From Alphaproteobacteria bacterium (GTDB lineage: Bacteria > Pseudomonadota > Alphaproteobacteria > RF32 > CAG-239): a stretch of 64,000 bases of DNA. The stretch is taken from positions 874 to 64,873 of the forward strand of contig JAGCXO010000018.1 in NCBI GenBank assembly GCA_017961285.1, in the 5' to 3' direction. The first letter of the stretch is position 1; every line of letters begins with the position of its first letter. Shown here in pieces: positions 2,243-61,856 of this stretch. The notes under the pieces were generated by a model. The model saw only the letters and a program-made list of their open reading frames with translations, ran no database searches and was not told where the DNA came from. A program made the position numbers and the translations under genes.

Positions 2243-4594
2243 TTACTTATCAATCTTTATTCCGACTTCCAGCATATTTTGTTTGTTTTGCCACTTATAG
2301 GTCGCGCTGTCCGTCAGTTTTTTCATCAAGAACACACCCAAACCGCCGATATTTCGCTGTTTCAAATCAACGGTAACATCAGGCATCTTATTTTTCAACG
2401 GATTATATTTTCTTCCGCTGTCAATAAATTTCACATAATAAAAACCGCCTTCCTCACGTGTCTTAACCGTAACAACGGGATTGTCAGCAGAAGTATAAGC
2501 ATATTTTGCAATATTGGCAAAAATCTCTTCAGCCGCCATAACCATATTAAACACTGCTTTTTCAGATAGCTTATATTTCAGCATATCATCTTTCAAGTAC
2601 AATAAAAATTCTTCTAATTTTTCAATTCTCGCAGAATAGGTAATTGTTCCCGCCTCATAGCCGTGAAAAACAAAATCCAACATGGTTATATCATCTGATT
2701 GCGGAGTATTTTTAACAAATTTTTTAATATCTTTTAGTATCAAATCCAAATTTTCCGACGGCACAGATTTTGTCTTTTCAAATATCTTCAACAGCCTGTT
2801 CTCACCATAAAATTTGGCATCTTTATTTTCGGCTTCTGTCACACCATCAGTATATAGCAACCAATGTGCATTTGGGAGCAATTTTATTTCTTCTTCTGCA
2901 AAAATTGCATCACTGTTAATACCCAGCACAATATTTTTTTTCACATCCATAAACGTTGCCTTGTTACCATTCATAATCAACGGAGGATTGTGTCCGGCAC
3001 TGACATATTTTGCCGTTCCGCTTAATAAATCAATTACTGCCATAAAGGCTGTTACAAACATACAACTATCATTGCCCTCACACAGCTGTTTATTGACATG
3101 ATCAAAAACAAAATCCAAACTCCGTTTGCTCTTACTTATATTTTTTATCAAAGTTATCGCCTTCATCATATATAGCGCAGCCGGAATACCTTTGCCCGAA
3201 ACATCGGCAATAACAATAGCAAATTTGTTATCATCAATAAAGAAAAAGTCATAAAAATCACCCGCCACCTGTCTTGCTGGAATCATCATTGTCGCTACAT
3301 CAAAGGCCGGATTTTGCGGATATTTTTTAGCAAGGACCGATTCTTGAATATTTTGTGCAATTTCAAGTTCACTGACAATCTTTTGCTTATCGGAAGCCTC
3401 TACCCTCTCCCTATGAATATATTCAAGCAAGTTCGTTTTCATATTTGCCAAAGCTTTTGCCAATCTTTCGACATCAGTTGAAGACGGCATATCATCAAAC
3501 TGTTCCGAAAAATCACCTTTACCATATTTTTCCGCCACATTTCCCAAAACAATCAGCTGATTTGTAGAATTATGGCTTATCCAATTAATTATCAATAACA
3601 ACAAAAGCATACACACCAACATCGCCGCTGCAACAATAATTTGAAACTGGCGAATTGGCCTCAAAAGCTCATCTTTGGAATATACCAAACAAAAACTCCA
3701 ATTTATATTTTTAATCGGCGAATAATAGAAAATCGCCGCACCATTAACTACAGATGAATATGGAATTTCTATTTGTCCGGATTTACCTTCTGCCAACTCT
3801 TTTCCCACCACATCAAGTTCTGGTAAATTCATCTTTTTTGCCAACTCAAAAATTGTCATCTTCAACGCAACTTCCGGATTGGGATGAGTAACATAAGTTC
3901 CGTAGCGCGACAACAAAAGCAACTTACCTGCTTCATAAAACGAAAAATTATTTATATTATTTTGAATATTCGACAAATCAACCGTCAAAGCAACCAAACC
4001 ATTAAAATCTTTTTGCCCCAAAAAACTAAACGGCACCAAACAGGTTACAACCACATTGCCGGTTGTTTTGTCTTGATAAGGTTCTGACCAATATATCTTT
4101 TCTTCCTTCGGAACTTCCTTAAACCACGGAAAATTATCATAAAAATTTTTAATTTTTTCTGTTTTGAAATCAATTATCCCGTCATCATTTTCATCTTCTG
4201 CCATATAAAGCGTTCCAACTGAAACATCATCCGGAGGAAAAACATAAACCCATGCATCAATAAAATTTAATTCCGAATTATAAACCGTTTTCAAAGCCGA
4301 ACTTAAAACCACATTCATCGTAGCAATATCGCCATCATTTATTTGGCTCAGGGTATTTTTTGCCGCCAATATCACATTTTCGGCATCTGTTGCCAAATCA
4401 GAAAAATCTGTGGTATACACTTCTATTGATCTTTTAGCAATATTATCAATTTGCGACTTAATAATCGGCTCTGCCTGCTTCGAAATAATAAATGCCATCA
4501 CTCCAAAACCTAAGCAAACGCAAGTCAATATACTCACATTCAGCTTAAATTTTAATGAATGGCGGCTCAGCCAAGATTTCAAAAAATTTATCAT
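2243..4594 (-). CDS. Membrane sensor PP2C/SpoIIE-family phosphatase fused to a C-terminal RsbW/SpoIIAB-type HATPase (anti-sigma kinase-like) domain
   Basis: Two TM segments flank a Cache-like periplasmic region (YWSEPYQDKTTGNVVVT). A HAMP-like linker follows, then PP2C motifs (AGDFYDFF, VIADVSGKGIPAALYM, LYTDGVTEA). The C-terminal block ends NIGGLGVFLMKKLTD. Start chosen at MINFLKS, where the ATG overlaps the upstream STAS gene stop as ATGA. Confidence 0.75.
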   Translation of the reverse strand: MINFLKSWLSRHSLKFKLNVSILTCVCLGFGVMAFIISKQAEPIIKSQIDNIAKRSIEVYTTDFSDLATDAENVILAAKNTLSQINDGDIATMNVVLSSALKTVYNSELNFIDAWVYVFPPDDVSVGTLYMAEDENDDGIIDFKTEKIKNFYDNFPWFKEVPKEEKIYWSEPYQDKTTGNVVVTCLVPFSFLGQKDFNGLVALTVDLSNIQNNINNFSFYEAGKLLLLSRYGTYVTHPNPEVALKMTIFELAKKMNLPELDVVGKELAEGKSGQIEIPYSSVVNGAAIFYYSPIKNINWSFCLVYSKDELLRPIRQFQIIVAAAMLVCMLLLLLIINWISHNSTNQLIVLGNVAEKYGKGDFSEQFDDMPSSTDVERLAKALANMKTNLLEYIHRERVEASDKQKIVSELEIAQNIQESVLAKKYPQNPAFDVATMMIPARQVAGDFYDFFFIDDNKFAIVIADVSGKGIPAALYMMKAITLIKNISKSKRSLDFVFDHVNKQLCEGNDSCMFVTAFMAVIDLLSGTAKYVSAGHNPPLIMNGNKATFMDVKKNIVLGINSDAIFAEEEIKLLPNAHWLLYTDGVTEAENKDAKFYGENRLLKIFEKTKSVPSENLDLILKDIKKFVKNTPQSDDITMLDFVFHGYEAGTITYSARIEKLEEFLLYLKDDMLKYKLSEKAVFNMVMAAEEIFANIAKYAYTSADNPVVTVKTREEGGFYYVKFIDSGRKYNPLKNKMPDVTVDLKQRNIGGLGVFLMKKLTDSATYKWQNKQNMLEVGIKIDK

Positions 4595-4908: not shown

Positions 4909-5118
4909 AAAATTTCTCCAATTTATAATCGCAACACTTATTTGAAAACAAGCTACAACAAAAACGTTAAAATCTTGATAATTATTTATAAAGAAAAACA
5001 TAAAAAAGCACCTCAACTTATACATCTCAAATTTAACCAAATTTTCAGACATCTGCATTATCATCAAATTACGTTCTTACGAACAAACTATATTCAAACA
5101 ACTGAGAAGACTTTTAAT

Positions 5119-6922: not shown

Positions 6923-8071
6923 TCAGTCTTTTCCTAAGTTAGTATCTCGATTCACGTACATCGCCATAATAATTCCGAAACTCGCCATCACCGAAAGCAT
7001 AACCGTTCCACCGTAAGAAATCATCGGCAGCGGAACACCCACAACCGGTATCAAACCCAAAACCATGGCTATATTGATAAACACATACAAAAAATAATTT
7101 GTTGCCAACCCGATAATTGTCAACTTTCCAAAATAGCTGGTCGTCCTCATTGCAAATGAATAGCTATAAACCAAAACCAAAACATTAAGAAAAATAACCA
7201 AAAATCCGCCGACAAAACCAAATTCTTCCGAGAGCATTGTAAAAATAAAGTCCGTATGCTTTTCCGGCAAAAAATTCAAATGACTTTGCGTTCCGCTCAT
7301 AAATCCCTTGCCCCAAAAGCCACCTGAGCCCAAAGCGATTTTTGATTGCATAATATGATAACCCGCGCCCAAAGGATCTCTCTCCGGATTAAGAAAAGTC
7401 AAAACTCTCTGTTTTTGATAATCATGCAAAAAATGCCACACAACCGGCAACATCGCCGCACCGCCGACAGATACAATCGCAAACTTAAACAACTGCACTC
7501 CCACAACAAACAAAACTATTCCGGTGGTAAACAACAGCATCATTGCTGTTCCCAAATCCGGTTGCATCATAATCAGCACCGCCGGAACAGCACCCATCAG
7601 CAGCGGAGGAATAATTCCACCGATTGTCTCAATATTCTGCAAAGTTGTAGAATGAAAATATTTCGCCAACGCCAACACAAGAGCAATTTTCATCAGTTCC
7701 GAAGGCTGCAACTTCATAAAACCCAAGTTTATCCAACGCGTTGCCCCCATTCCCGTATATCCGGCAACTTCTACAACAATCAACAAAATCAAAGTAAAAG
7801 CATAAAAATAATACGCATAATGCAAAAAGCGTTTGATATCAACAAAGACCAGCGCCAACATCAAAGCTCCCCCCATAGCCACACGTACTGCATGATTAAA
7901 CGCCCAAACTTTCCAATCTCCGTTTGCCGCGGAATATAGCATCAAAACACCAATCAAAGCCAACAAAAATACAAAGAAAAAATACTTAAAACTCATATTA
8001 TATATTTTTTCCTTAAAAGACAAATTCGGATTATGAAAACCTGTTTTATAAAACTTATACATACTATTCAC
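6923..8071 (-). CDS. rodA: Peptidoglycan glycosyltransferase RodA (SEDS family)
   Basis: 382 aa, about 10 TM helices, FtsW/RodA motifs (QPSELMK, DLGTA, PEKHTDFIF, PLPMISYGG). Overlaps the mrdA stop. Confidence 0.9.
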   Translation of the reverse strand: MNSMYKFYKTGFHNPNLSFKEKIYNMSFKYFFFVFLLALIGVLMLYSAANGDWKVWAFNHAVRVAMGGALMLALVFVDIKRFLHYAYYFYAFTLILLIVVEVAGYTGMGATRWINLGFMKLQPSELMKIALVLALAKYFHSTTLQNIETIGGIIPPLLMGAVPAVLIMMQPDLGTAMMLLFTTGIVLFVVGVQLFKFAIVSVGGAAMLPVVWHFLHDYQKQRVLTFLNPERDPLGAGYHIMQSKIALGSGGFWGKGFMSGTQSHLNFLPEKHTDFIFTMLSEEFGFVGGFLVIFLNVLVLVYSYSFAMRTTSYFGKLTIIGLATNYFLYVFINIAMVLGLIPVVGVPLPMISYGGTVMLSVMASFGIIMAMYVNRDTNLGKD

Positions 8072-14292: not shown

Positions 14293-15579
14293 TCAAAAAT
14301 TTCCCATCATCTGGGTTCTGAATTGCTCTTCATCCTTCCCGTATATTATCGGCATATCGGCATATAAAAAAGACAAAGATCCATCATTCAACATCGCCGA
14401 ATCCGTAAAACTATGCTCAGCCGCATCAGCCACAACATCACCCTTAGAAGTAATTTTCATCACATCCAAACTATGTTTATTTTTCCCGTTTGCAAAAATC
14501 TTAAATGCTCCGTTAATTCCCGAAAAACCGCTTGGATTTGTGATAGCATCATTCAAATTATAAGCATTCTTTTTTGCCAAAGAAGAAGCCAGCGCAACAG
14601 CATCATATCCAAAAGCCGCCAAAGCAGAAGGATAAACCCCGAACAAAGAATGATATTTCTTATTAAAATATGCGCTATAATTTCGTGACAAAGCCGGATA
14701 GACCGCTCCTTGCAAAGTTGTCTCTTTGCTCAAATTTGTATTTTCCCAAACCGAAGTTCCCATAAACAAAACCTCCGGCGAAAACACGTCATAATAACCA
14801 AACATCGCAGTCGCCGACTTCAATCTGCTTCCCGATTCCGGAATAAGCACGGCATCAAAATCAACTCGCCGATTCTTTTCTATTCCGCCATAAACATTAC
14901 CTGAACCATAATCGGTCAGTTTTTTTACTATATCAGAAAAATCATTTGTATCCGGAGGATAAAAAGCAATTTTCACAACCTTGCCGCCGTTATTATTGAC
15001 CGCCTTAATAGCCTCTCTCGCAACAACAATCCCCGTAGAATTGTCCGGCAACAACAAGGCAAACCTTTCTCTTCCCTTCATAGAAGCATAGTTCACAATC
15101 CGCTCAACCTGCTCGCCGACCAACAGCCCCAAAGTATATACTTGGTCTTGCAAAACAGTTTCATTGGTCGAAAAAGCAACCACCGGCACACCGCTGTTTC
15201 TCGTTCTCTTTGATACAGCCTCAACCTCTGTTGCCATCAACGGCCCGATAATAAGTTTTACATCTTGGCTTATAGCTGCATCCGCCGCATCTCTTGCCCC
15301 TTCAGGGGTGCCTTTTGTATCATAAAATTGCAAAATAAGATTAGGATTATTCATATCTTCCAAAGCCAGCATAGCTGCATTTTTCAAACCATTACCGACA
15401 GAAGCGGCATCACCGCTCAAAGGAAGCAAAACACCAACTCTAAAACTTTCTTTGGTGATCAACTCCGATTCTTCAATCGGCGAACTGCTCTTAAAAAAAA
15501 TTTTTTTCTGTTTAACCACCGGGGTTTGACACGATGACAAAACAAAAACAAGCAACAAAATACAAAATCTTTTAAACAC
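14293..15579 (-). CDS. Lipoprotein with a type-1 periplasmic-binding fold, LpoA/LppC-like (putative PBP activator)
   Basis: Lipobox VLSSC. Leu/Ile/Val-binding-protein-like fold signatures. Divergent from rsmI-yraN, as lpoA is in E. coli. Confidence 0.6.
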   Translation of the reverse strand: MFKRFCILLLVFVLSSCQTPVVKQKKIFFKSSSPIEESELITKESFRVGVLLPLSGDAASVGNGLKNAAMLALEDMNNPNLILQFYDTKGTPEGARDAADAAISQDVKLIIGPLMATEVEAVSKRTRNSGVPVVAFSTNETVLQDQVYTLGLLVGEQVERIVNYASMKGRERFALLLPDNSTGIVVAREAIKAVNNNGGKVVKIAFYPPDTNDFSDIVKKLTDYGSGNVYGGIEKNRRVDFDAVLIPESGSRLKSATAMFGYYDVFSPEVLFMGTSVWENTNLSKETTLQGAVYPALSRNYSAYFNKKYHSLFGVYPSALAAFGYDAVALASSLAKKNAYNLNDAITNPSGFSGINGAFKIFANGKNKHSLDVMKITSKGDVVADAAEHSFTDSAMLNDGSLSFLYADMPIIYGKDEEQFRTQMMGNF

Positions 15580-54440: not shown

Positions 54441-55093
54441 TTTTTTGTAGAAACCAACAACCAGTTAGGACTTCTCGATTCGATATTGCGCTCAAAAGTC
54501 CAAACATCCGTAACTGATTGAATAAAGTTTTCATCCCCCTCAATAATTTCACCTTCGGCATTGCGCAAAACATTTGCTTGTTCGCTGACAAAACGCACGG
54601 AAATTTTTGCATTTTTCTTTTCATCAACGCCGGCATTAACAATCTCCACCGAGCTAAAACCGACAAAATCCGTCTCTGCGGTAATTTTTTCTTCTTTGCG
54701 TTGTTTGATAATTTTTTCAAAATTCTTAAACATTTTTGAGTTCAATAACGGCTTCAAAATCTCGATTTCACCCTTGGCAAAAGAAGTTACAATCATCTCA
54801 AAAGCCTTTTGTGCGCTGGCCAAAAATCTGTCCGTATCAAAATTTGGAATCTGCGCCAAAACTCTATCTGTTTCTGACATTTCTTTTGGCTCAGAGTGCA
54901 ACTCCCCGCCGTCGACAACTTCTTCCCTATCCGATTGTTTCATAGATTCTTTCATCAAAATATCAAAAATTTTCGCCGCACTGTCCTTGCTGATGGGGCG
55001 AGTAATTTTCTCCGGTCTTGTCCCCAAAACACTCCACAATTTTTGAAAAATCAAAAACACGACAATCAGCAAAACAATAATATCAAAAGCCAT
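54437..55093 (-). CDS. Tim44-like domain membrane protein
   Basis: 218 aa with an N-terminal TM helix. C-terminal Tim44-like fold pattern (WTFERN..SPNWLLV). Confidence 0.75.
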   Translation of the reverse strand: MAFDIIVLLIVVFLIFQKLWSVLGTRPEKITRPISKDSAAKIFDILMKESMKQSDREEVVDGGELHSEPKEMSETDRVLAQIPNFDTDRFLASAQKAFEMIVTSFAKGEIEILKPLLNSKMFKNFEKIIKQRKEEKITAETDFVGFSSVEIVNAGVDEKKNAKISVRFVSEQANVLRNAEGEIIEGDENFIQSVTDVWTFERNIESRSPNWLLVSTKK

Positions 55094-55223
55094 TTTTTCC
55101 TCTAAAAAAAATTAAACACGTTGACTATAATATAGCTAAAATGTTGATATTATCAACCTAATTATTTGACCTCTAAAAAATATTTGGTATATTTTCAAAC
55201 AAAAAAACAAAGGAGAACATAAA

Positions 55224-55670
55224 ATGAGTGAAACACAACAACCGAATTCCGTTTCTGTCTTGGGACAATTTATCAAAGACTTATCGTTAGAAATTCCCCA
55301 TGCCCCCGAAATTTTTACCGAAGTAAAATCGGCACCGAAAGTTGATGTTAATATCGATGTAAAATCCGATTCCAAAGGCAACGACCGCTATGCCGTAACT
55401 TTACATGTTGTCATCAACGGCAAAGTTGAGGACAAAACTCTCTTTATCTTAGAGCTTTCATATATGGCTTTTGCCGAAGTAAAAGTTCCTGCCGAGCACT
55501 TGGAACCGATATTGATGATAGAAATTCCTCGGCTGATTTTTCCTTTTGCCCGCAACGTCATAACTCAATGCTTGTGCGAGGGTGGATTGCCTCCGTTTAT
55601 GCTCAATCCTATAGACTTTGTTGCTCTCTACAACGCCCGCAAACAAAGCGCCCAAGCTCCAAAGAACTAA
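55224..55670 (+). CDS. secB: Protein-export chaperone SecB
   Basis: 148 aa. VLGQFIKDLSLE..P and LIFPFARNVI. Confidence 0.9.
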   Translation: MSETQQPNSVSVLGQFIKDLSLEIPHAPEIFTEVKSAPKVDVNIDVKSDSKGNDRYAVTLHVVINGKVEDKTLFILELSYMAFAEVKVPAEHLEPILMIEIPRLIFPFARNVITQCLCEGGLPPFMLNPIDFVALYNARKQSAQAPKN

Positions 55671-55672
55671 AG

Positions 55673-55872
55673 GTCAGCCCTTGCTCGGCGCACCGGTGTC
55701 TTTATTAAAGTCACCCCTCGATTTTGCTTGCAAAATCATCCAGGGGTCTACCGATTAGTTTTTTCATTGTCATCCCTTGCTCGGCGCACAAGCGTCCGTG
55801 CATCAAGGGATCCAAACTTCAGTACTTTAGCACTGCTTCCTTATAAAAATTCGAAGACCCCTTGACCAAAAA
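55673..55872. repeat. Left-flank array of GTCAYCCCT...AGGGRTC clamp hairpins (one partial unit plus a two-hairpin module)
   Basis: Starts 2 nt after the secB stop. 55710-55872 matches 60623-60789 in the same orientation at roughly 9 of 10 positions by eye. Confidence 0.85.
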
Positions 55873-55984
55873 CTAGCGTTTTTGGAGGGGGGACATAAAG
55901 GCTAACTCGAAGATTGCTTGACCTCAGACATTCTGTCTTCGGAGCGATGACATTTATTATAATCGTCATCTTTTCATAACAAAA

Positions 55985-56003
55985 GGGGCGGAAAAACCGC
56001 CCC
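55985..56003 (-). terminator. Rho-independent terminator of the pilin-like operon
   Basis: ggggcgg-aaaaa-ccgcccc, followed on the minus strand by a T-rich run. Lies 23 nt after the stop at 56026. Confidence 0.75.
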
Positions 56004-56025
56004 CTTCATCGCAGCTTCAAAACTA

Positions 56026-58071
56026 TTACCACGGATCCCTAAATTTCAAACGTTGGTCATTAAGGCGCGTATTATAGTCATTAGTTTTCTCATAACTATT
56101 AACTACACTAGCATCATGAGATTGCTCAAAAGTCTTCAATTGATCATATTTATCAACATAATCAGAATCATATTCTACATTCGTCCTATCAAAATAGCAA
56201 TATACCGTGGCATAACCCTCTATCTCGTTTTTATAAACAGGGAACAAATTCCAAAATACTTTGTCTTGATTTGTCGCACTATGCCCGCTTGTGCCGCCGG
56301 CACCGGAATAAGAATCTTGAGTTGCATAAGCATGAGCACTACGAGCCAAATCTCCATACTGACTGGCAGGATAGATAAATCCCATAATCAATCCCCATCC
56401 ATTAAAGTCCTTTGCATTACTGGTATGATTCATATGTCCTTCATATACAGGTCTAACCTCCGAACGCAACCATGTGCTCTTTTGATAATCAAGATATATC
56501 GGCATTGCATCAGAAGCTGTGCTGCTGTTTTGGTTATAAACCTCCATTGCATCAGGCAGACTGACCTCCGGTTTTCCGTTAGTATCAATAGTCAGCTTTC
56601 CAGCCTGTGCCATAGCCCAACCGGCAGGGGTCAAAGTAATCACTTTTGCATATCCCTGAGGGCATTTTGGTGTCGGCACAAAACCGACATAAGCCGAAAC
56701 TATATCCCTTTGATTTTGTGCATCAGGAAAATCTTTAATCGGAAAATCAGGTTGGGTCCAATTTGTAACCACTCTTTCTTCATAGCTGGTATCAACCACA
56801 TAAATACCCTTGTTGATAAAGTCCGGCAAAATATCGCTCAAACGCGCACCGCCACGAGTAGTCAGTTTGATATCATGCATAACCGAGGTATAAGCCGGAT
56901 TAACTTCATATTTAGTATACAAATCACCAGCATCAGGAACCGGCATTCCGGCACCTTTTGCTACAGCCCTAGTTGCATTAATAGCATTTTGGTCTCTTCC
57001 AGCCCCCAGAAGAGAATAATTACTGATGAATCTATCTGCCGCAATATACCCCATCATTGCTTCTGTCGCAGTAGGATATGGTCCAGAGCCTGTAGTATTA
57101 TAATCTTCCAAAATCTCCTTATTATGCAAACGATGGTCTCTATTGGTCGCCAAATTAATAGAACCTTTTCTAATATAGACAGAACCATACGTTAAGGCAT
57201 CACTATCAGCATATCTGTTATCATCCTTATTATTATCAACTGCCATAATCAATTCACCCTTGGTCAAAGAGTGCTCTAAATTACGTGTCGCCCTAATCTC
57301 AAACTTACCTTTGTCGATGAACAAAGCTGCCGGATTGGCCGAATTAGAAGCATTGTTCCTAGCCCCTGGAAATTGCATATCATGGTCATAGACCGCAATA
57401 CCTCCGGCAAATCTGGTCGTAACCTTACCATATTCACCAGCACCGGGATCACCATATTCATCCGGTTTGATATTCAATACAGAACGCGTCTTAAGATCTC
57501 CAACTGGTCCGAGAACTTGACTTCTAGCGTTAGAAGCAATAGTATTTACTCCCAAAGAATCACTATTATAAACAATCTTACCGACATCAAATTGCATTCC
57601 TTCAATCATATATTGAGCTTTATTCACCTGGTTAGGTGCTGGGCTTCCTAAAGCATAAAACCTGTCTACATCCGTTTCTACAGTAGCTCCCCCATGAGGA
57701 TTATTATAAACTTGTAACATCGTATCTTGGATAGAAACAGGCATATCATCAACAAAATTCCAAAGTTGTCCCGAATCATCAAACGTCGACAAATAAATAC
57801 CTTTTTCTGCCCCCATACGGATTTCACCATATTGCGGCTCTGAATTAGTTTTTGCGAAGTAGAATTTATCAAATATACTGGTATTTCCGGCAATCAAATC
57901 AATACCGCCACCTACATTACTGGCATTAACCGTAAATCCCGGATGTTGTGAGTCGGAAGAAGCATATACCAAAGAATCTGCTGCACTATGCCCTTGTCCA
58001 TATAAACTAAACCTTGACTCACCAGCTTGAGTTTTTTCTGTCAACATAAAGAAATCACCATCAGGAGACAA
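56026..58071 (-). CDS. 681-aa ORF of unknown function, either translationally coupled to the upstream pilin-like ORF or its out-of-frame C-terminal continuation
   Basis: Opens with TTG and overlaps the upstream stop by 11 nt. Gly/Asn/Ser/Tyr-rich with no signal peptide of its own. No motif recognised. Confidence 0.6.
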   Translation of the reverse strand: MSPDGDFFMLTEKTQAGESRFSLYGQGHSAADSLVYASSDSQHPGFTVNASNVGGGIDLIAGNTSIFDKFYFAKTNSEPQYGEIRMGAEKGIYLSTFDDSGQLWNFVDDMPVSIQDTMLQVYNNPHGGATVETDVDRFYALGSPAPNQVNKAQYMIEGMQFDVGKIVYNSDSLGVNTIASNARSQVLGPVGDLKTRSVLNIKPDEYGDPGAGEYGKVTTRFAGGIAVYDHDMQFPGARNNASNSANPAALFIDKGKFEIRATRNLEHSLTKGELIMAVDNNKDDNRYADSDALTYGSVYIRKGSINLATNRDHRLHNKEILEDYNTTGSGPYPTATEAMMGYIAADRFISNYSLLGAGRDQNAINATRAVAKGAGMPVPDAGDLYTKYEVNPAYTSVMHDIKLTTRGGARLSDILPDFINKGIYVVDTSYEERVVTNWTQPDFPIKDFPDAQNQRDIVSAYVGFVPTPKCPQGYAKVITLTPAGWAMAQAGKLTIDTNGKPEVSLPDAMEVYNQNSSTASDAMPIYLDYQKSTWLRSEVRPVYEGHMNHTSNAKDFNGWGLIMGFIYPASQYGDLARSAHAYATQDSYSGAGGTSGHSATNQDKVFWNLFPVYKNEIEGYATVYCYFDRTNVEYDSDYVDKYDQLKTFEQSHDASVVNSYEKTNDYNTRLNDQRLKFRDPW

Positions 58072-59650
58072 TACGCCAGCCCCCCTGAAGTCCTATTACT
58101 GCCCCTGCACGGAATTTACCTGCATTAGCTTCATAAGCACTAACGTTACCGCCTTGGATAGTATCATTAACATACATACTACCGCTGACAGTCACTCTAT
58201 AATCTTCACCACTATTTTCAACTATTGTAGTATTTACATTTCCATTACCCATAGTAGTTTGATATAAGCGTGCCGGCCCCCCATGTTGTTGAACGGCAGT
58301 GCCTCCTACGCCAATAGTAACATAACCTTCATTACCGGTTTTATCAACCAACAAAGTCTTGTCCATCGCTTCAAGTTTATCTTGGTCAATATATAAATTC
58401 TCTATGCCATCATTCTTCTTATATCTCAGAGCAATACCACTTGCACCACCATGAGACACCTGAAATATCATTGCCTGTGTGCTAGGATTACCATATTGCA
58501 ATTCATCCACACCGAGTTTGAAAAACGCCAGAGTATTAGAAGCATATTTCATTTCCATCTTTGGCAAATTATTCATAGTAGGATCTTTTTCAACCGAAAA
58601 CCTTCGATCTATCGCTTGCAACCTACCCTGAACATTGGCACCGCCTCCATTGGTGATATACAAAGCATTATCAAGCGCATCACCATACTGATCATTTGCA
58701 AGACCACTTTCACCGGCTGTATGGGTTTTATCTGTCTCATTACCGCTTCCAACCATTCTATTTACATCAGGCGACATCACAATTTGGTTGACCATACGAA
58801 TATTGCGGGTAGTGGTATCTCTCGTTCCCAAAAACAGGTCAGTAGTCATCGCGTTCAGTGCTTGGTCATCATCATCCGGCATATCCACTCTATAAAGCAC
58901 GTTTTCATTCGTAAGCCCTTGCGAAGAAATTGGTTGCAAAGAAGAAACCACCAACGTATTCGGCTGTAACATCGGTATATCACCCTCAACCGGTGCAATA
59001 TCAGAATGCCCGATATTCCAAATTCCTTGTGTGCCCTGAACTGTCCAACCACTTCCATTAGGATCCTTATCTGCAACAGCACCATTGCTTCCGACCATGC
59101 TGGCAATACGCATTGCACGAGTGTTGTCAACCGAACTATGTTTCGGATCAGCAAACAAAAATCCAGTCAAAGTCTCTACAATCGGCTCTTTATTGGCATC
59201 TAATTGCCGTTTCAGACGAACCATAATTTTATAGTTTTCATTTAAATGATTATGAAATTTATTAGAAAAAAGCTTGGTTTCACGCATTTCCTGATTATCA
59301 ATCATCATACCATATGGCAGATAATTTCTCAGCACATTAACATCAACCACCACCGGTTTTGGATTTTCGTCATCAGGCACATTTCCGGTCAACGTAAAAA
59401 CGCTAAAATCACCGCCAAACACATCAGGATCACCGCGCGTGATTGCGGCAAAATTATCCTTCAAATAGGCATCCATCGCCGTGGCAATTGCCCTCAATTG
59501 GCTGGAGGCATTAATATCTTGCAGCTCGGTCGTGCGCTCCGCCGCCTTTTTATACAAAACAGGGGTAACCATAGAAACCAAACCCAACATTGCCAATGCT
59601 TCCACCAGCAATGTTCCTGTTTCGTTAATTTTTTTCAATATATTAGTCAT
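58061..59650 (-). CDS. Large prepilin-type protein resembling the PilV (Shufflon_N) constant region
   Basis: The N-terminus KKINETG/TLLVEALAMLGLVSMVTPVLY has Gly then Glu at +5, followed by the helix SSQLRAIATAMDAYLKDNF. Internal blocks MRIASMVGSNGAV..GWTVQGTQGIWNI and NVLYRVDMP..ALNAMTTDLFLG..NIRMVN recall R64 PilV ([22 protein letters not shown]) from memory. Confidence 0.6.
   Translation of the reverse strand: MTNILKKINETGTLLVEALAMLGLVSMVTPVLYKKAAERTTELQDINASSQLRAIATAMDAYLKDNFAAITRGDPDVFGGDFSVFTLTGNVPDDENPKPVVVDVNVLRNYLPYGMMIDNQEMRETKLFSNKFHNHLNENYKIMVRLKRQLDANKEPIVETLTGFLFADPKHSSVDNTRAMRIASMVGSNGAVADKDPNGSGWTVQGTQGIWNIGHSDIAPVEGDIPMLQPNTLVVSSLQPISSQGLTNENVLYRVDMPDDDDQALNAMTTDLFLGTRDTTTRNIRMVNQIVMSPDVNRMVGSGNETDKTHTAGESGLANDQYGDALDNALYITNGGGANVQGRLQAIDRRFSVEKDPTMNNLPKMEMKYASNTLAFFKLGVDELQYGNPSTQAMIFQVSHGGASGIALRYKKNDGIENLYIDQDKLEAMDKTLLVDKTGNEGYVTIGVGGTAVQQHGGPARLYQTTMGNGNVNTTIVENSGEDYRVTVSGSMYVNDTIQGGNVSAYEANAGKFRAGAVIGLQGGWRIVS
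58080..58085 (-). other. G6 (plus-strand C6) homopolymer at the junction of the two ORFs
   Basis: The coding strand reads CTT CAG GGG GGC TGG CGT ATT GTC TCC TGA. Removing one G gives the continuous reading ..LQGAGVLSPDGDFFMLTEK. Confidence 0.8.
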
Positions 59651-59659
59651 TGTAGCCTC

Positions 59660-60304
59660 CTATTGAATTTTGGTGATATAAACCAAACAATAATTTCCGT
59701 TACCGCTGCACATCCCATTATCTTTACCAAAATCTCTATTATTACCGATTATATATTCCGGAAGAGAATAATATGGTCTTGTGCCTTGAGAAACCACGCC
59801 TTTGCGAGTATTAAAAGTGTTATACTCATCATTTTCACCCATATAAGGATTATCAGCCCTATCAACCGAATAGCCGAGTCCGTCAACATAACCCAGCTTG
59901 TCTCTCATAGAATCCAAAATTTCGGCTCTCGGCAAACCGGTGCGATTATCCTGCCATTTTCTGGCAATCGGGCCATAGGTGATGATATAATTAAAATCGT
60001 TACCCTTACACTCTGGAACAGAGGAATATCCGTCTTCATCGAGACAATAAAGATAAGAAGAAAAATTTCCCCGATTAAAACCAAACGGGAGATATGTTTC
60101 TTCAAGCTTGTTATAATCAACCTCGCCATCTATCATATCGTTATAAGTAAAATATTTCATAACTGCGCGGTGCAGAACATACAGCTGCGTAACCTCGGCT
60201 TCGGCCTGTCTATCAAGATACAATTCCTTAATATCAGGACGTAGCGAACTGCTCAACGCCGCCAGCGCAGAAAGGAAAATTGCTATTACAACCCATAAAT
60301 ACAT
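59660..60304 (-). CDS. 214-aa membrane-anchored protein, first gene of the pilin-like operon
   Basis: aggag SD. N-terminal hydrophobic helix MYLWVVIAIFLSALAAL, then a pilin-like helix AEAEVTQLYVLHRAVMKY, but no Gly/Glu+5 processing site. Four Cys in the globular part. Confidence 0.5.
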   Translation of the reverse strand: MYLWVVIAIFLSALAALSSSLRPDIKELYLDRQAEAEVTQLYVLHRAVMKYFTYNDMIDGEVDYNKLEETYLPFGFNRGNFSSYLYCLDEDGYSSVPECKGNDFNYIITYGPIARKWQDNRTGLPRAEILDSMRDKLGYVDGLGYSVDRADNPYMGENDEYNTFNTRKGVVSQGTRPYYSLPEYIIGNNRDFGKDNGMCSGNGNYCLVYITKIQ

Positions 60305-60387
60305 ACGATACTCCTACACTAAAACATATTGTCAGAATACCACAAAACTATAATAAATAAAAGTGTATAATGAGCCTAAAACCAAAA

Positions 60388-60427
60388 ATTAATATTTCTG
60401 TAACATTTCATTAATATTTTTGTAACA
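60388..60427. promoter_or_regulatory. Two 18-nt direct repeats ATTAATATTTYTGTAACA spaced 22 bp apart, upstream of the pilin-like operon
   Basis: 60388-60405 and 60410-60427 are identical at 17 of 18 positions. A third partial copy (ctgtaat) lies at about 60445. They sit 84-123 nt upstream of the 60304 start. Confidence 0.35.
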
Positions 60428-60462
60428 AACCTTTTTCGAAAATCTGTAATTTTTAAAACATT

Positions 60463-60789
60463 GTCATCCCTCCAAACCATCACAAAAAAAACCTGTCATC
60501 CCTCCAAACCGTCATAAAAAAAACCTGTCATCCCTCGATTTTGCTTGCAAAAACAGTATCAAAGTCATCCCTATTTTTTCGCCCTGCGAAAAAATTCAAG
60601 GGATCTACGAATTTATTCAACTGTCATCCCTCGATTTTGCTTGCAAAATCGTCAAGGGATCTACCGATTAGTTTTTTCATCGTCATCCCTTGCTCGGCGC
60701 CCAAGCGTCCGTGTATCAAGGGATCCAAACTTCAGTGCTTTAGCACTGCTTCCTTATATAAAAACTCAAAGCCCCCTTGCCCCAAAAAT
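60463..60789. repeat. Right-flank array of six GTCATCCCT-initiated units, including the two-hairpin module shared with the left flank
   Basis: Unit starts at 60463, 60495, 60527, 60564, 60623 and 60682. Interiors differ but are self-complementary (cgattttgc/gcaaaatcg, attttttcg/cgaaaaaat, cggcgc/gcgtccg). Confidence 0.85.
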
Positions 60790-60845
60790 AAACAAAGGAA
60801 AACGCCCTCTCATCTCACGATGAAAGGGCGTTGTTTTTTTAGAGG

Positions 60846-61667
60846 CTAAGCCCTCATTCTATCGAGCCAAGCTTGAACCTTCTCTTCCGAGAGGTCAAAG
60901 TCTCCTTTGACTCCATTCGGAAGATAAAAGCTCTCCTCAATGTCATAGAGCCTCTTTATGTCGAGGTCTCTGATGTCATCGAGTTTTACTTGGCCCGTGA
61001 AAAGAGCCGCCTCAAGCCATCTCCGCTTGTGCACCCCAACATATTGCCCCTTTCCGAGCACCTTTACGCACTCTTCAGGGGTTTTTCCGGAATTGATAGC
61101 TTTTGCAAATGCGGATTTTGCAAATCCACCGTTTCCGGTGGAGTAAGCTATCATGCAACATGCAATGTACTGTTCCGGCGTGCGGAGTTTTATAGTATCC
61201 AAAAGCCGGTAAACTCCTTTTAAGTATTCACGCATTTCGGCTTTCGCCTCATCGCGTGAAATCCTTGTGCCGGGGGTTACTTTGTGCCCGCGGACACGGC
61301 TTTGACCGTATCCGACGAGCCAATTTCCGCATTTATAGGCTTCGCCCTTAAAGGACTCAACGCTACAAATGCAGTCAACGATATCATCTTCATCTGCAAA
61401 GCAGATGGAAACGATATCAGATTTTACCACTTTCGTGGTAACTGTCGTGGTAGCGGTCGTTGCCGGTGCCGTCGCTGTTGCAGAAGCTTCGGCCTTAGCA
61501 GGCGAAACTACCACCGTTGCCGTCGCAGAAGCTGCGGTCGGTGTTGTAACCACTGCGGTCAGCTCCGTCGCTGTTTCCCCGTTTTTTTCTTGCGCAGGAG
61601 AGGATAAAATCCCACGGCAACAGTATATCACTGTGATAACTGCTGCAATGAAAAAAAGCTTTTTCAT
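60846..61667 (-). CDS. Secreted GH24 (phage-type) lysozyme-like protein with a Thr/Ala-rich linker
   Basis: N-terminal signal or anchor. Low-complexity region TAVVTTPTAASATATVV..ATTATTTVTT. Lysozyme core VESFKGEAYKCGNWLVGYGQS..G..ISRDEAKAEMREYL. Confidence 0.7.
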   Translation of the reverse strand: MKKLFFIAAVITVIYCCRGILSSPAQEKNGETATELTAVVTTPTAASATATVVVSPAKAEASATATAPATTATTTVTTKVVKSDIVSICFADEDDIVDCICSVESFKGEAYKCGNWLVGYGQSRVRGHKVTPGTRISRDEAKAEMREYLKGVYRLLDTIKLRTPEQYIACCMIAYSTGNGGFAKSAFAKAINSGKTPEECVKVLGKGQYVGVHKRRWLEAALFTGQVKLDDIRDLDIKRLYDIEESFYLPNGVKGDFDLSEEKVQAWLDRMRA

Positions 61668-61856
61668 ATTAATAATTTATATTTAATTCGTTGAGGATTG
61701 CATTATACCACTTTTTAGCCCCCATGTCAAGGAGTCGTCATCATAACAATTAGTTGAAATTATGTCATTTTATCATTTATTCACAACTAAAAATATTTTT
61801 TAATTGTTTTTTAAACTAAATGTTTTAATATGCCCTCTTATAATGAGAGGAAAACC

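Follow-up and report, generated by a model that had tools for sequence, protein, structure and literature searches.

The 64,000-nt stretch of alphaproteobacterial contig JAGCXO010000018.1 analyzed here (the window) carries, immediately downstream of secB, a two-gene pilin-like cassette that is bracketed by two direct-repeat modules built from short hairpin units. We read the modules as clusters of Ssn-related motifs (SRMs), the class of NTS-like repeats described in PMC11893778, in an SRM-gene-SRM arrangement that would modulate the exchange of an adhesin cassette, and we assign this reading a probability of about 0.72. The assignment of the window units to the SRM class, as a long-stem variant, is well supported, because in related bacteria small GIY-YIG nuclease genes sit within arrays of the same units, and distant homologues of these genes are flanked by the canonical NTS. 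The Ssn-related motifs comprise NTS (CGTCATTCCCGCGMAVGCGGGAATCYRG, a sequence that includes the old dRS3 repeat) together with related repeats of other bacteria (PMC11893778). As reported there, the repeats flank ssnA, which encodes a 94-aa single-domain GIY-YIG protein, and in Neisseria they cluster near surface-protein genes. SsnA recognizes the sense-strand motif, exclusively in single-stranded DNA, and cleaves immediately 5′ of it. When SsnA is lost, transformation by DNA with NTS around the marker is about five-fold higher, and cutting by SsnA lowers the integration of transforming DNA with an NTS-gene-NTS arrangement (PMC11893778).

A repeat search of the window returned a 140-nt direct repeat of 94% identity (55710-55849 versus 60623-60762, spacing 4913), and gapped alignment widens it to about 172 nt (~55710-55881 versus 60623-60797) with one 2-nt indel. 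Counted from this alignment, the longest unbroken identity between the two modules is only ~23 nt. Both copies share a composite of hairpin 1, the 20-nt linker taccgattagttttttcat, hairpin 2 and the 16-nt palindrome cagtRctttagcactg, and the initial annotation, which had recognized direct-repeat modules on either side of a pilin-like locus, was correct in this respect. In the base stem of hairpin 1, the left and right copies are distinguished by a compensatory pair (GTCACCCCT...AGGGGTC versus GTCATCCCT...AGGGATC). As had also been stated, the repeats start directly after secB: a truncated unit begins at 55673, 2 nt downstream of the stop codon (55668-55670). Both intergenic regions are mosaics of a single type of unit, a hairpin of 39-46 nt. 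At the left, the truncated unit (55673) is accompanied by four intact ones, two per strand; the right region contains three truncated units (60463, 60495 and 60527) and three intact ones on the + strand. The 5′ arm and the loop are retained in all four truncated units. The right copy of the long repeat stops within the loop of a reverse-orientation unit, which is whole only at the left.

The two reverse units on the left (55846-55897 and 55902-55954), the intact unit at 60561-60615 and the three truncated units on the right had been missed, as had the nature of the pilin-like locus, a two-gene cassette with a frameshifted large gene. A covariance model (R1) identified seven intact units in the window, every one flanking the cassette. 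With its filters switched off, no significant unit was found in the window outside 55707-55954 and 60561-60733, and a generic head/stem/tail scan revealed nothing convincing in the rest of it, which agrees with the earlier observation that the other ~58 kb hold no further copies. An Rfam scan of positions 55000-61500 with E values up to 1 matched no family, and promoter and terminator scans gave no excess over shuffled sequences. No JGI metagenome contig among those scanned for the unit1-linker-unit2 junction matched. The elements of the two arrays are as follows (CM, covariance model).

55673-55709, + strand: truncated unit, 5′ arm and loop of a type-2 hairpin (gtcagcccttgctcggcgcaccgg...); from the sequence, repeat family D3
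55707-55758, + strand: intact SRM-like unit of type 1 (GTCACCCCT...AGGGGTC), with a compensatory T-A to C-G change in the base stem relative to the right copy; CM R1 52 bits, E 1.4e-14; DNA fold z -3.1
55766-55820, + strand: intact SRM-like unit of type 2, GC-rich interior; CM R1 25.9 bits; fold -13.5 kcal/mol, z -5.4
55820-55835, + strand: small palindrome cagtactttagcactg within the long direct repeat; from the sequence and the gapped alignment
55846-55897, - strand: intact reverse-orientation unit, reading GAAGACCCCTTGAC...GGAGGGGGGAC on the + strand; CM R1 50 bits; fold z -4.7
55902-55954, - strand: reverse-orientation unit with base stem ATCGCT/AGCAAT, a weak hairpin; CM R1 31.1 bits; fold z -0.8
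60463-60563, + strand: three truncated units (starting at 60463, 60495 and 60527), each a 5′ arm and loop; from the sequence and the repeat search
60561-60615, + strand: intact unit of type 1 (GTCATCCCTATTTTTTCGC...); CM R1 62.5 bits; fold z -6.9
60620-60671, + strand: intact unit of type 1, the right-hand hairpin 1; CM R1 66.1 bits; 100% identity over 42 nt to a unit in locus L047
60679-60733, + strand: intact unit of type 2, the right-hand hairpin 2; CM R1 21.2 bits; fold z -5.1
60733-60797, + strand: small palindrome and truncated half of a reverse unit, the end of the long direct repeat; from the gapped alignment

The unit reads GTC-ATCCCT-(stem-loop-stem)-TCA-AGGGAT-C, often followed by T(T/A)C(G/A)AATTA. 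It is organized in two tiers, with a head (N-GTCAT), a 6-bp base stem (ATCCCT/AGGGAT), a 3-nt TCA bulge, an upper stem of 8-10 bp and a tail (ATC-Y-N-B). The sequence of the upper stem varies freely yet remains complementary. Model R1 was built from 66 distinct units, in which G4, T5, C6 and A7 are invariant and T8 is conserved in at least 90%, the head being GTCA(T/C) in all of them. Within the 66-unit alignment, 96.6% of the cells pair and 214 cells are changed on both sides, such double changes being seen in 11 of the 14 pairs; when the partners are slid by 1-3 columns as a control, pairing drops to 29-55%. The base stem also covaries across subfamilies (ATCGCT/AGCGAT, ATGCCT/AGGCAT, ACCCCT/AGGGGT and ATGGCT/AGCCAT). 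G-U or U-G pairs occupy only 4 of 924 cells, and their near absence indicates that the palindrome is maintained at the level of DNA rather than as an RNA structure. Folded as single-stranded DNA, six of the seven intact window units are far more stable than shuffled sequences (z -3.1 to -6.9). Two other search tools were discarded: an nhmmer profile was less sensitive than the covariance model and missed type-2 units, and a tolerant regular-expression scanner gave ~17% false positives.

A pattern scan of one genome per species matched at least 117 stretches in about 40 assemblies, nearly all of them metagenome-assembled genomes (MAGs) from rumen and gut titled Alphaproteobacteria, Rhodospirillaceae or 'Azospirillum'. 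The covariance model detected 247 units in ~830 kb of loci from ~40 gut and rumen alphaproteobacterial MAGs, and 199 of 243 units lie outside called open reading frames (ORFs), though coding sequence makes up 82% of the DNA. Divergent gaps hold units less often (7 of 80) than do tandem (57 of 238) or convergent ones (23 of 78). A unit lies within 250 nt upstream of 13 of 18 type IVb pilin genes (Bundlin/PilS family) in loci that were selected for containing units; gaps beside called pilin genes hold units in 4 of 8 cases versus 83 of 388 for other gaps, numbers that are too small for a comparison. Modules resembling those of the window also flank housekeeping genes in L092 of a related MAG (L numbers designate retrieved loci and contigs), namely a 404-aa gene, an rlmN-like gene and dnaK. 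The initial annotation had held that scattering over many intergenic sites would argue against a role in cassette acquisition; such a scattered intergenic family is indeed what the lineage as a whole contains, but not what is seen within the window. Arrays also differ between strains, the right one being 96 nt longer in L001 and L002, from two other samples (15300-15500 and 15300-15496, respectively), than in the window (60527-60622), and the extra block is a tandem pair of one truncated and one intact unit.

Some further features of the units in relatives were noted. Contigs L002, L003 and L135 end inside arrays. At nine loci with Bundlin/PilS-like pilin genes (N-terminus G|RSMIEMLGVLAIIGVLS), a unit ends 13-33 nt before the mature N-terminus, always in antisense orientation; L059, L062, L073, L083, L112 and L113 come from one MAG (RGIG4773), and the others are L037, L107 and L114. 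The pilin start codon of L037 is the ATG of the unit's ...GAGGGATGAC end (leader MTSLG), and the translations of L107 and L114 have a similar leader. RGIG4773 contains at least eight pilin paralogues with a common two-unit upstream block, where the sole in-frame start is the TTG of the unit's TTGAC. The phage contig L136 (IMGVR_UViG_3300029965_000286), which encodes small and large terminase subunits and a head-tail adaptor (PHROGs), has six units in four gaps between structural genes (1170-1285, 2787-2838, 4939-5056 and 7280-7331), all six antisense to the genes, with half-units (gagggatgacgag...) nearby. L110, from a related MAG, has genes for small membrane proteins in the glmM-ftsH interval (3600-4450), and at least one of these, a 146-aa gene (3785-4225), is bracketed by unit-containing direct repeats (...TCAAGGGATCttcgaattagcgcacaaaaaaaccgct).

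The link to Ssn nucleases comes from small GIY-YIG genes (~95 aa) in the unit-bearing alphaproteobacterial loci, all three of which (L025, L052 and L140) have units 0-101 nt away on both sides. Units are likewise found on both sides of the GIY-YIG gene in L141, L143 and L164, and on the sole flank present in the contig in L142. In L052 (SecB 48%), the genes secB, spoU and carD are followed by a module, a pilin gene, a unit, the GIY-YIG gene and another module. Comparison of L140 with the syntenic L138 reveals an extra GIY-YIG gene in L140 with units on both sides. The inserted segment (L140 8689-9916 versus L138 8622-8952) consists of a unit array, the 95-aa GIY-YIG gene and a second array, and is located between a PilV-like gene and a flavin reductase gene; it looks like a mobile 'repeat, ssn, repeat' unit of the kind that PMC11893778 proposes for NTS-ssnA-NTS.

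A further set of 80 loci with GIY-YIG relatives was drawn from metagenome contigs independently of the units. The four nearest relatives (at least 69% identity) all carry units, on both sides wherever sequence exists. The 250-nt flanks up- and downstream of the gene share a repeat in 39 of 57 homologue loci, versus 0 of 38 controls taken 500-750 nt away. The canonical motif, with TGTCATTCCCGCGAAGGCGGGAATCCAG among its occurrences, flanks homologues at 48-62% identity; there are 29 matches in 184 kb versus 0-3 in shuffled sequences. GIY-YIG is the only Pfam domain in these proteins, and the nearest solved structures in the PDB are weak UPF0213 matches. As to the motif itself, the published head HGTCWY is matched by all five intact + strand units of the window; the published tail RNCYNB is matched by the type-1 units (ATCTAC or ATCTTC), and the type-2 tail (ATCCAA) fails at the last position.

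The units would accordingly resemble NTS in function as well, serving as recognition elements of a small single-domain GIY-YIG endonuclease of the Ssn family. Such a nuclease would act on incoming single-stranded DNA at the arrays, and the arrays would modulate the frequency of cassette replacement, loss and transfer. We infer by analogy with SsnA that an Ssn enzyme of this organism would cut long-stem units, and the effect of the arrays on cassette exchange is suggested by the same analogy. The near-identity of the two modules is attributed to array dynamics, that is, to duplication and to recombination among unit-containing blocks. A transposon target duplication was considered as the origin of the modules and rejected: there is no transposase domain, and the repeat is 140-172 nt long and a mosaic of dispersed units.

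Several observations weigh against assigning the modules to the Ssn system. The 64-kb window, which is part of the genome, contains no ssn gene, and the placement of the GIY-YIG proteins of the relatives in the Ssn clade (cd10448) is an indirect one, suggested by the canonical motif around their more distant homologues. Units are also rare in this particular lineage, with none in the other 58 kb of the window and one weak match in 20 kb of the sister lineage. The published degenerate search, HGTCWYN(0-2)YYVSBRHN(0-5)WNVSBRGN(0-2)RNCYNB, gives 0 matches in the window; it gives eight matches in L004-L120 and recovers the NTS positive control, and it misses the window units because their longer, two-tier stem has arms of 14-17 nt instead of 7 nt. 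The seeds of the covariation analysis were partly chosen for pairing (the base stem and four inner pairs), and the outer half of the upper stem, which was not selected for, covaries equally strongly. Finally, the proposed mechanism presupposes DNA uptake by this organism, and these bacteria are uncultured.

The bracketed genes are accessory, as the initial annotation had proposed. In the sister lineage, the closest one (SecB 89% identical; L121-L126, GCA_054270035.1 among them), 206 nt separate secB from the same lysR, with aas next, and this gap holds a terminator-like hairpin with a T-run and no unit, module, cassette or lysozyme gene. Positions 55671-61752 of the window (6082 nt) correspond to 105 unrelated nt there. 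Besides the cassette and the two modules, the 6082-nt difference takes in the lysozyme gene on the far side of the right module, so that the inserted or deleted segment does not end at the repeats, contrary to the earlier proposal that they bound a unit acquired or lost as a whole. The next lineage (SecB 83%) has a single unit behind secB and then other genes, so that the contents of the secB-lysR gap differ across three lineages. In L128 of that lineage, ~290 nt of non-coding DNA with strong hairpins lie between the unit and an HTH_3 gene (7700-7990) and could be an uncharacterized RNA.

A homologous cassette (57-63% identity) is found between smpB and plsC in L130-L133, bracketed by direct repeats of 87-93 nt with 90-94% identity, spaced 4938-4961 nt and built from another hairpin subfamily (CGTCATTGCGAGCGTAGCGCGGCAATCCAG and ATCAC...GTGATGAC). 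The arrays flanking it are located as follows.

L130 5343-5778 and 10126-10662: arrays flanking the smpB-plsC cassette
L133 6928-7277 and 11712-12092: arrays flanking the smpB-plsC cassette

The two cassettes are homologous from ~124 nt before the first gene through to the large-gene stop codon, and the upstream limit of this homology lies 14-35 nt from a unit. A tblastn search with the L130 neighbourhood did not find smpB in the window. In distant lineages the cassette stands beside fliN, DUF6468 and uvrB, with smpB beyond uvrB in L139; this fliN/uvrB/smpB locus is probably the ancestral one, and the L138 and L139 cassettes have no flanking repeats.

These comparisons bear on the view that the cassette is mobile and the repeats are integration footprints or excision substrates, such that a circle with the cassette and one module would recombine with a chromosomal module, and recombination between the flanking modules would later delete the cassette. 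It would account for a cassette that is absent from the sister lineage and present at another locus in L130-L133, for the recurrence there of bracketing by direct repeats with different hairpin sequences, and for an upstream end of homology so close to a unit; the 96-nt block variation of the right array between strains and the single unit after secB in the P0004 lineage fit it as well. The empty site of the sister lineage has no module, however, and the indel takes in the lysozyme gene. The arrangement of secB, a single module and the lysozyme gene that had been predicted for an empty site occurs in none of the contigs retrieved, and a look-up of the lysozyme protein returned only the same locus. 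Flanking repeats are missing at the probably ancestral locus, and ~23 nt of uninterrupted identity is all that the modules offer. No recombinase, transposase or integrase domain was found near the locus, where the neighbours are SecB, Tim44, MltA, lysozyme and LysR. We consider a mobile cassette of this type unlikely. Of the earlier suggestion that an element targets the repeats, what survives is that they belong to a class of units recognized by Ssn single-stranded-DNA nucleases; a recombinase or transposase acting on them has no candidate gene nearby. A more speculative possibility, which we regard as doubtful, is that SRM arrays act as portable recombination modules that relocate surface-adhesin cassettes by array-to-array or Ssn-initiated recombination; the idea arises because the cassette is bracketed at two unrelated sites (secB, and smpB in L130-L133) by different hairpin subfamilies.

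The remaining alternatives concern the nature of the hairpins themselves. They might act on transcripts, as terminators, mRNA-stabilizing hairpins or insulators for highly expressed pilus genes, and their enrichment at 3′ ends (tandem and convergent gaps) with depletion in divergent gaps is what such elements would show; in addition, a reverse-orientation hairpin is often followed by GAC and a T-rich run, the six phage units share one orientation relative to the genes, and the units 13-33 nt upstream of nine pilin genes have one constant orientation. The near absence of G-U pairs argues against this, as do the lack of a T-run directly after the stem, the occurrence of both directions in tandem gaps (57 versus 38), the separate hairpins at the lysozyme gene (terminator-like) and after the large gene (GC-rich), and the absence of an Rfam match. 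As the sole explanation a transcript-level function appears distinctly improbable, but it could coexist with an Ssn role. An integron-like cassette system with the hairpins as attC-type sites would explain conserved ends with variable, complementary interiors and the bracketing of single genes or small sets (the window, L052 and L110). The ends of attC sites are RYYYAAC and GTTRRRY, and the unit ends are unlike either; units moreover are found in either orientation and as tandem copies with no intervening genes, housekeeping genes are flanked too, and there is no integrase near the locus, so this explanation has almost nothing to recommend it. The units also share the traits listed in PMC2817692 for the REP/BIME elements that RAYT maintains in Gammaproteobacteria, being short, imperfect, mostly extragenic palindromes in many copies and both orientations with compensatory changes. 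The head is nevertheless GTCA(T) and not GT(A/G)G, the arrays enclose a GIY-YIG nuclease gene, and a motif search for HUH plus Y..NP in ~1 Mb of unit-bearing loci found no ORF that has both; RAYT/REP pairs do not extend beyond the Gammaproteobacteria and their neighbours, according to PMC2817692. A REP/BIME identity is thus very unlikely.

Among described systems, the SRM class with SsnA, known from Neisseria meningitidis and many other bacteria (PMC11893778), is similar in its oriented head ((C)GTCAT), hairpin and tail (ATC-Y-R-G), and in its many extragenic copies that cluster at surface-protein genes (here in the lineage as a whole, the organism itself being represented by 64 kb). The resemblance extends to a small single-domain GIY-YIG gene flanked by repeats (here in relatives) and to the exact NTS consensus around distant homologues of the GIY-YIG genes found here. 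The units differ from NTS in being two-tiered, with the 6-bp base, the 3-nt bulge and a hypervariable upper stem of 8-10 bp, and in their length of 39-46 nt versus ~28 nt; they are known from sequence alone, in uncultured gut and rumen Alphaproteobacteria and one phage contig. [quoted passage not shown] By contrast, dRS3, which flanks RS elements, is a 20-bp repeat, ATTCCC-N8-GGGAAT, as compared with ATCCCT...AGGGAT with 20-30 nt between the arms, its host belongs to a different phylum-level lineage, and no integration of filamentous phage is seen here. REP/BIME elements with RAYT (PMC2817692, PMC3116915) share the abundance, clustering, alternating orientation and compensatory pairing of extragenic palindromes and the flanking of a cognate enzyme gene, but have a GTAG head in place of GTCAT and a Y1 HUH transposase in place of a GIY-YIG nuclease. 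Minimal mobile elements of Neisseria (Saunders and Snyder 2002), as far as they are described where cited in PMC1797815, are comparable as small accessory sets with alternative contents between conserved genes, and unlike in being defined by exchange through homology of the flanking genes instead of by repeats. A literature search by the repeat sequence returned primer matches only.

If the assignment holds, the Ssn/SRM system, which was described in 2025 mainly from Neisseria, Wolbachia and reference genomes, extends to a large group of uncultured gut and rumen Alphaproteobacteria. What is new is a variant architecture outside the published motif, in a lineage and a phage in which it has not yet been reported. 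The published motif search misses this long-stem variant, and the family is therefore probably wider than has been counted. The arrays would also provide a second case, next to pathogenic Neisseria, of repeats concentrated at genes for host-interaction surface structures (type IVb pilins and a PilV-like adhesin). With its fixed base and variable upper stem, the unit family amounts to a naturally occurring substrate series for determining what an Ssn enzyme reads, which bears on the proposed use of Ssn proteins as programmable cutters of single-stranded DNA. For annotation purposes, the window repeats are not to be labelled as termini of a mobile element.

The genes between and around the arrays are organized as follows.

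55224-55670, + strand: secB, conserved left neighbour; Pfam SecB, E 6.6e-41
55982-56007, - strand: GC-rich hairpin aaaaggggcggaaaaaccgccccctt just past the stop codon of the large gene, a likely terminator; from the sequence, not listed by the terminator scan
56026-58071, - strand: C-terminal 681-aa part of the PilV-like large minor pilin (a single 1207-aa gene in L002); from the ORF and homologue comparison
58080-58085, + strand: C6 run, read as G6 in the coding direction, that puts the large gene out of frame, with G5 in the intact gene of L002; from sequence comparison
58061-59650, - strand: N-terminal 529-aa part with class III signal peptide MTNILKKINETG|TLLVEAL and E at +5; from the sequence; PF04917 Shufflon_N in some family members
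59660-60304, - strand: 214-aa partner gene of the cassette; 63% identity to the 237-aa gene preceding the homologous large gene in L130, no Pfam match
60305-60428, - strand: upstream region of the cassette, conserved with L130 and L133, two TGTTACA motifs; blastn homology ends at 60428
60846-61667, - strand: secreted protein of the phage-lysozyme family (Pfam PF00959), in the segment missing from the sister lineage; absent from L121-L126
61830-62741, + strand: LysR-type regulator, conserved right neighbour; sister-lineage homology resumes at ~61753

The cassette consists of two - strand genes, the 214-aa gene and a large gene that is 1207 aa long and intact in L002. One extra G in a run of five (58080-58085) splits the large gene of the window into parts of 529 and 681 aa, and in L001 the gene is cut by a TGA 12 nt upstream of the G run (L001 12767-12917). 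These disruptions could be the result of phase variation by slippage, gene decay or sequencing error in a homopolymer. The large-gene product begins with a class III (prepilin) signal, MTNILKKINETG|TLLVEAL, in which position +5 is Glu. It has 367 homologues within the E-value cut-off; most of the 120 listed are ~1200 aa long, and some of these carry Pfam Shufflon_N (PF04917), the constant region of type IVb PilV. Bundlin and PilS are the families matched by the short pilins of these bacteria, and the cassette proteins of the window matched no family in Pfam, NCBIfam or PADLOC. Judging from these sequence features, the cassette is best read as encoding a PilV-like minor pilin or adhesin of the type IVb class and a partner protein. 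Its GC content of 0.40-0.43 is not distinct from that of the surroundings, and the base composition thus gives no sign of a foreign origin.

The upstream region of the cassette contains TGTTACA twice on the - strand (60399-60427; L130 5655-5700), with the motifs ~22 nt apart within an AT-rich stretch, possibly a regulator site or a promoter. The genes dnaA, dnaN and recF lie ~6 kb to the left of secB (~44-50 kb in the window, by correspondence with L001 302-4234), and the variable secB-lysR gap is thus close to the likely replication origin. The lysozyme (60846-61667) is encoded outside the repeat-bracketed cassette and is a secreted protein with a Thr/Ala-rich linker that may open the peptidoglycan for the pilus; its gene has a terminator-like hairpin of its own.

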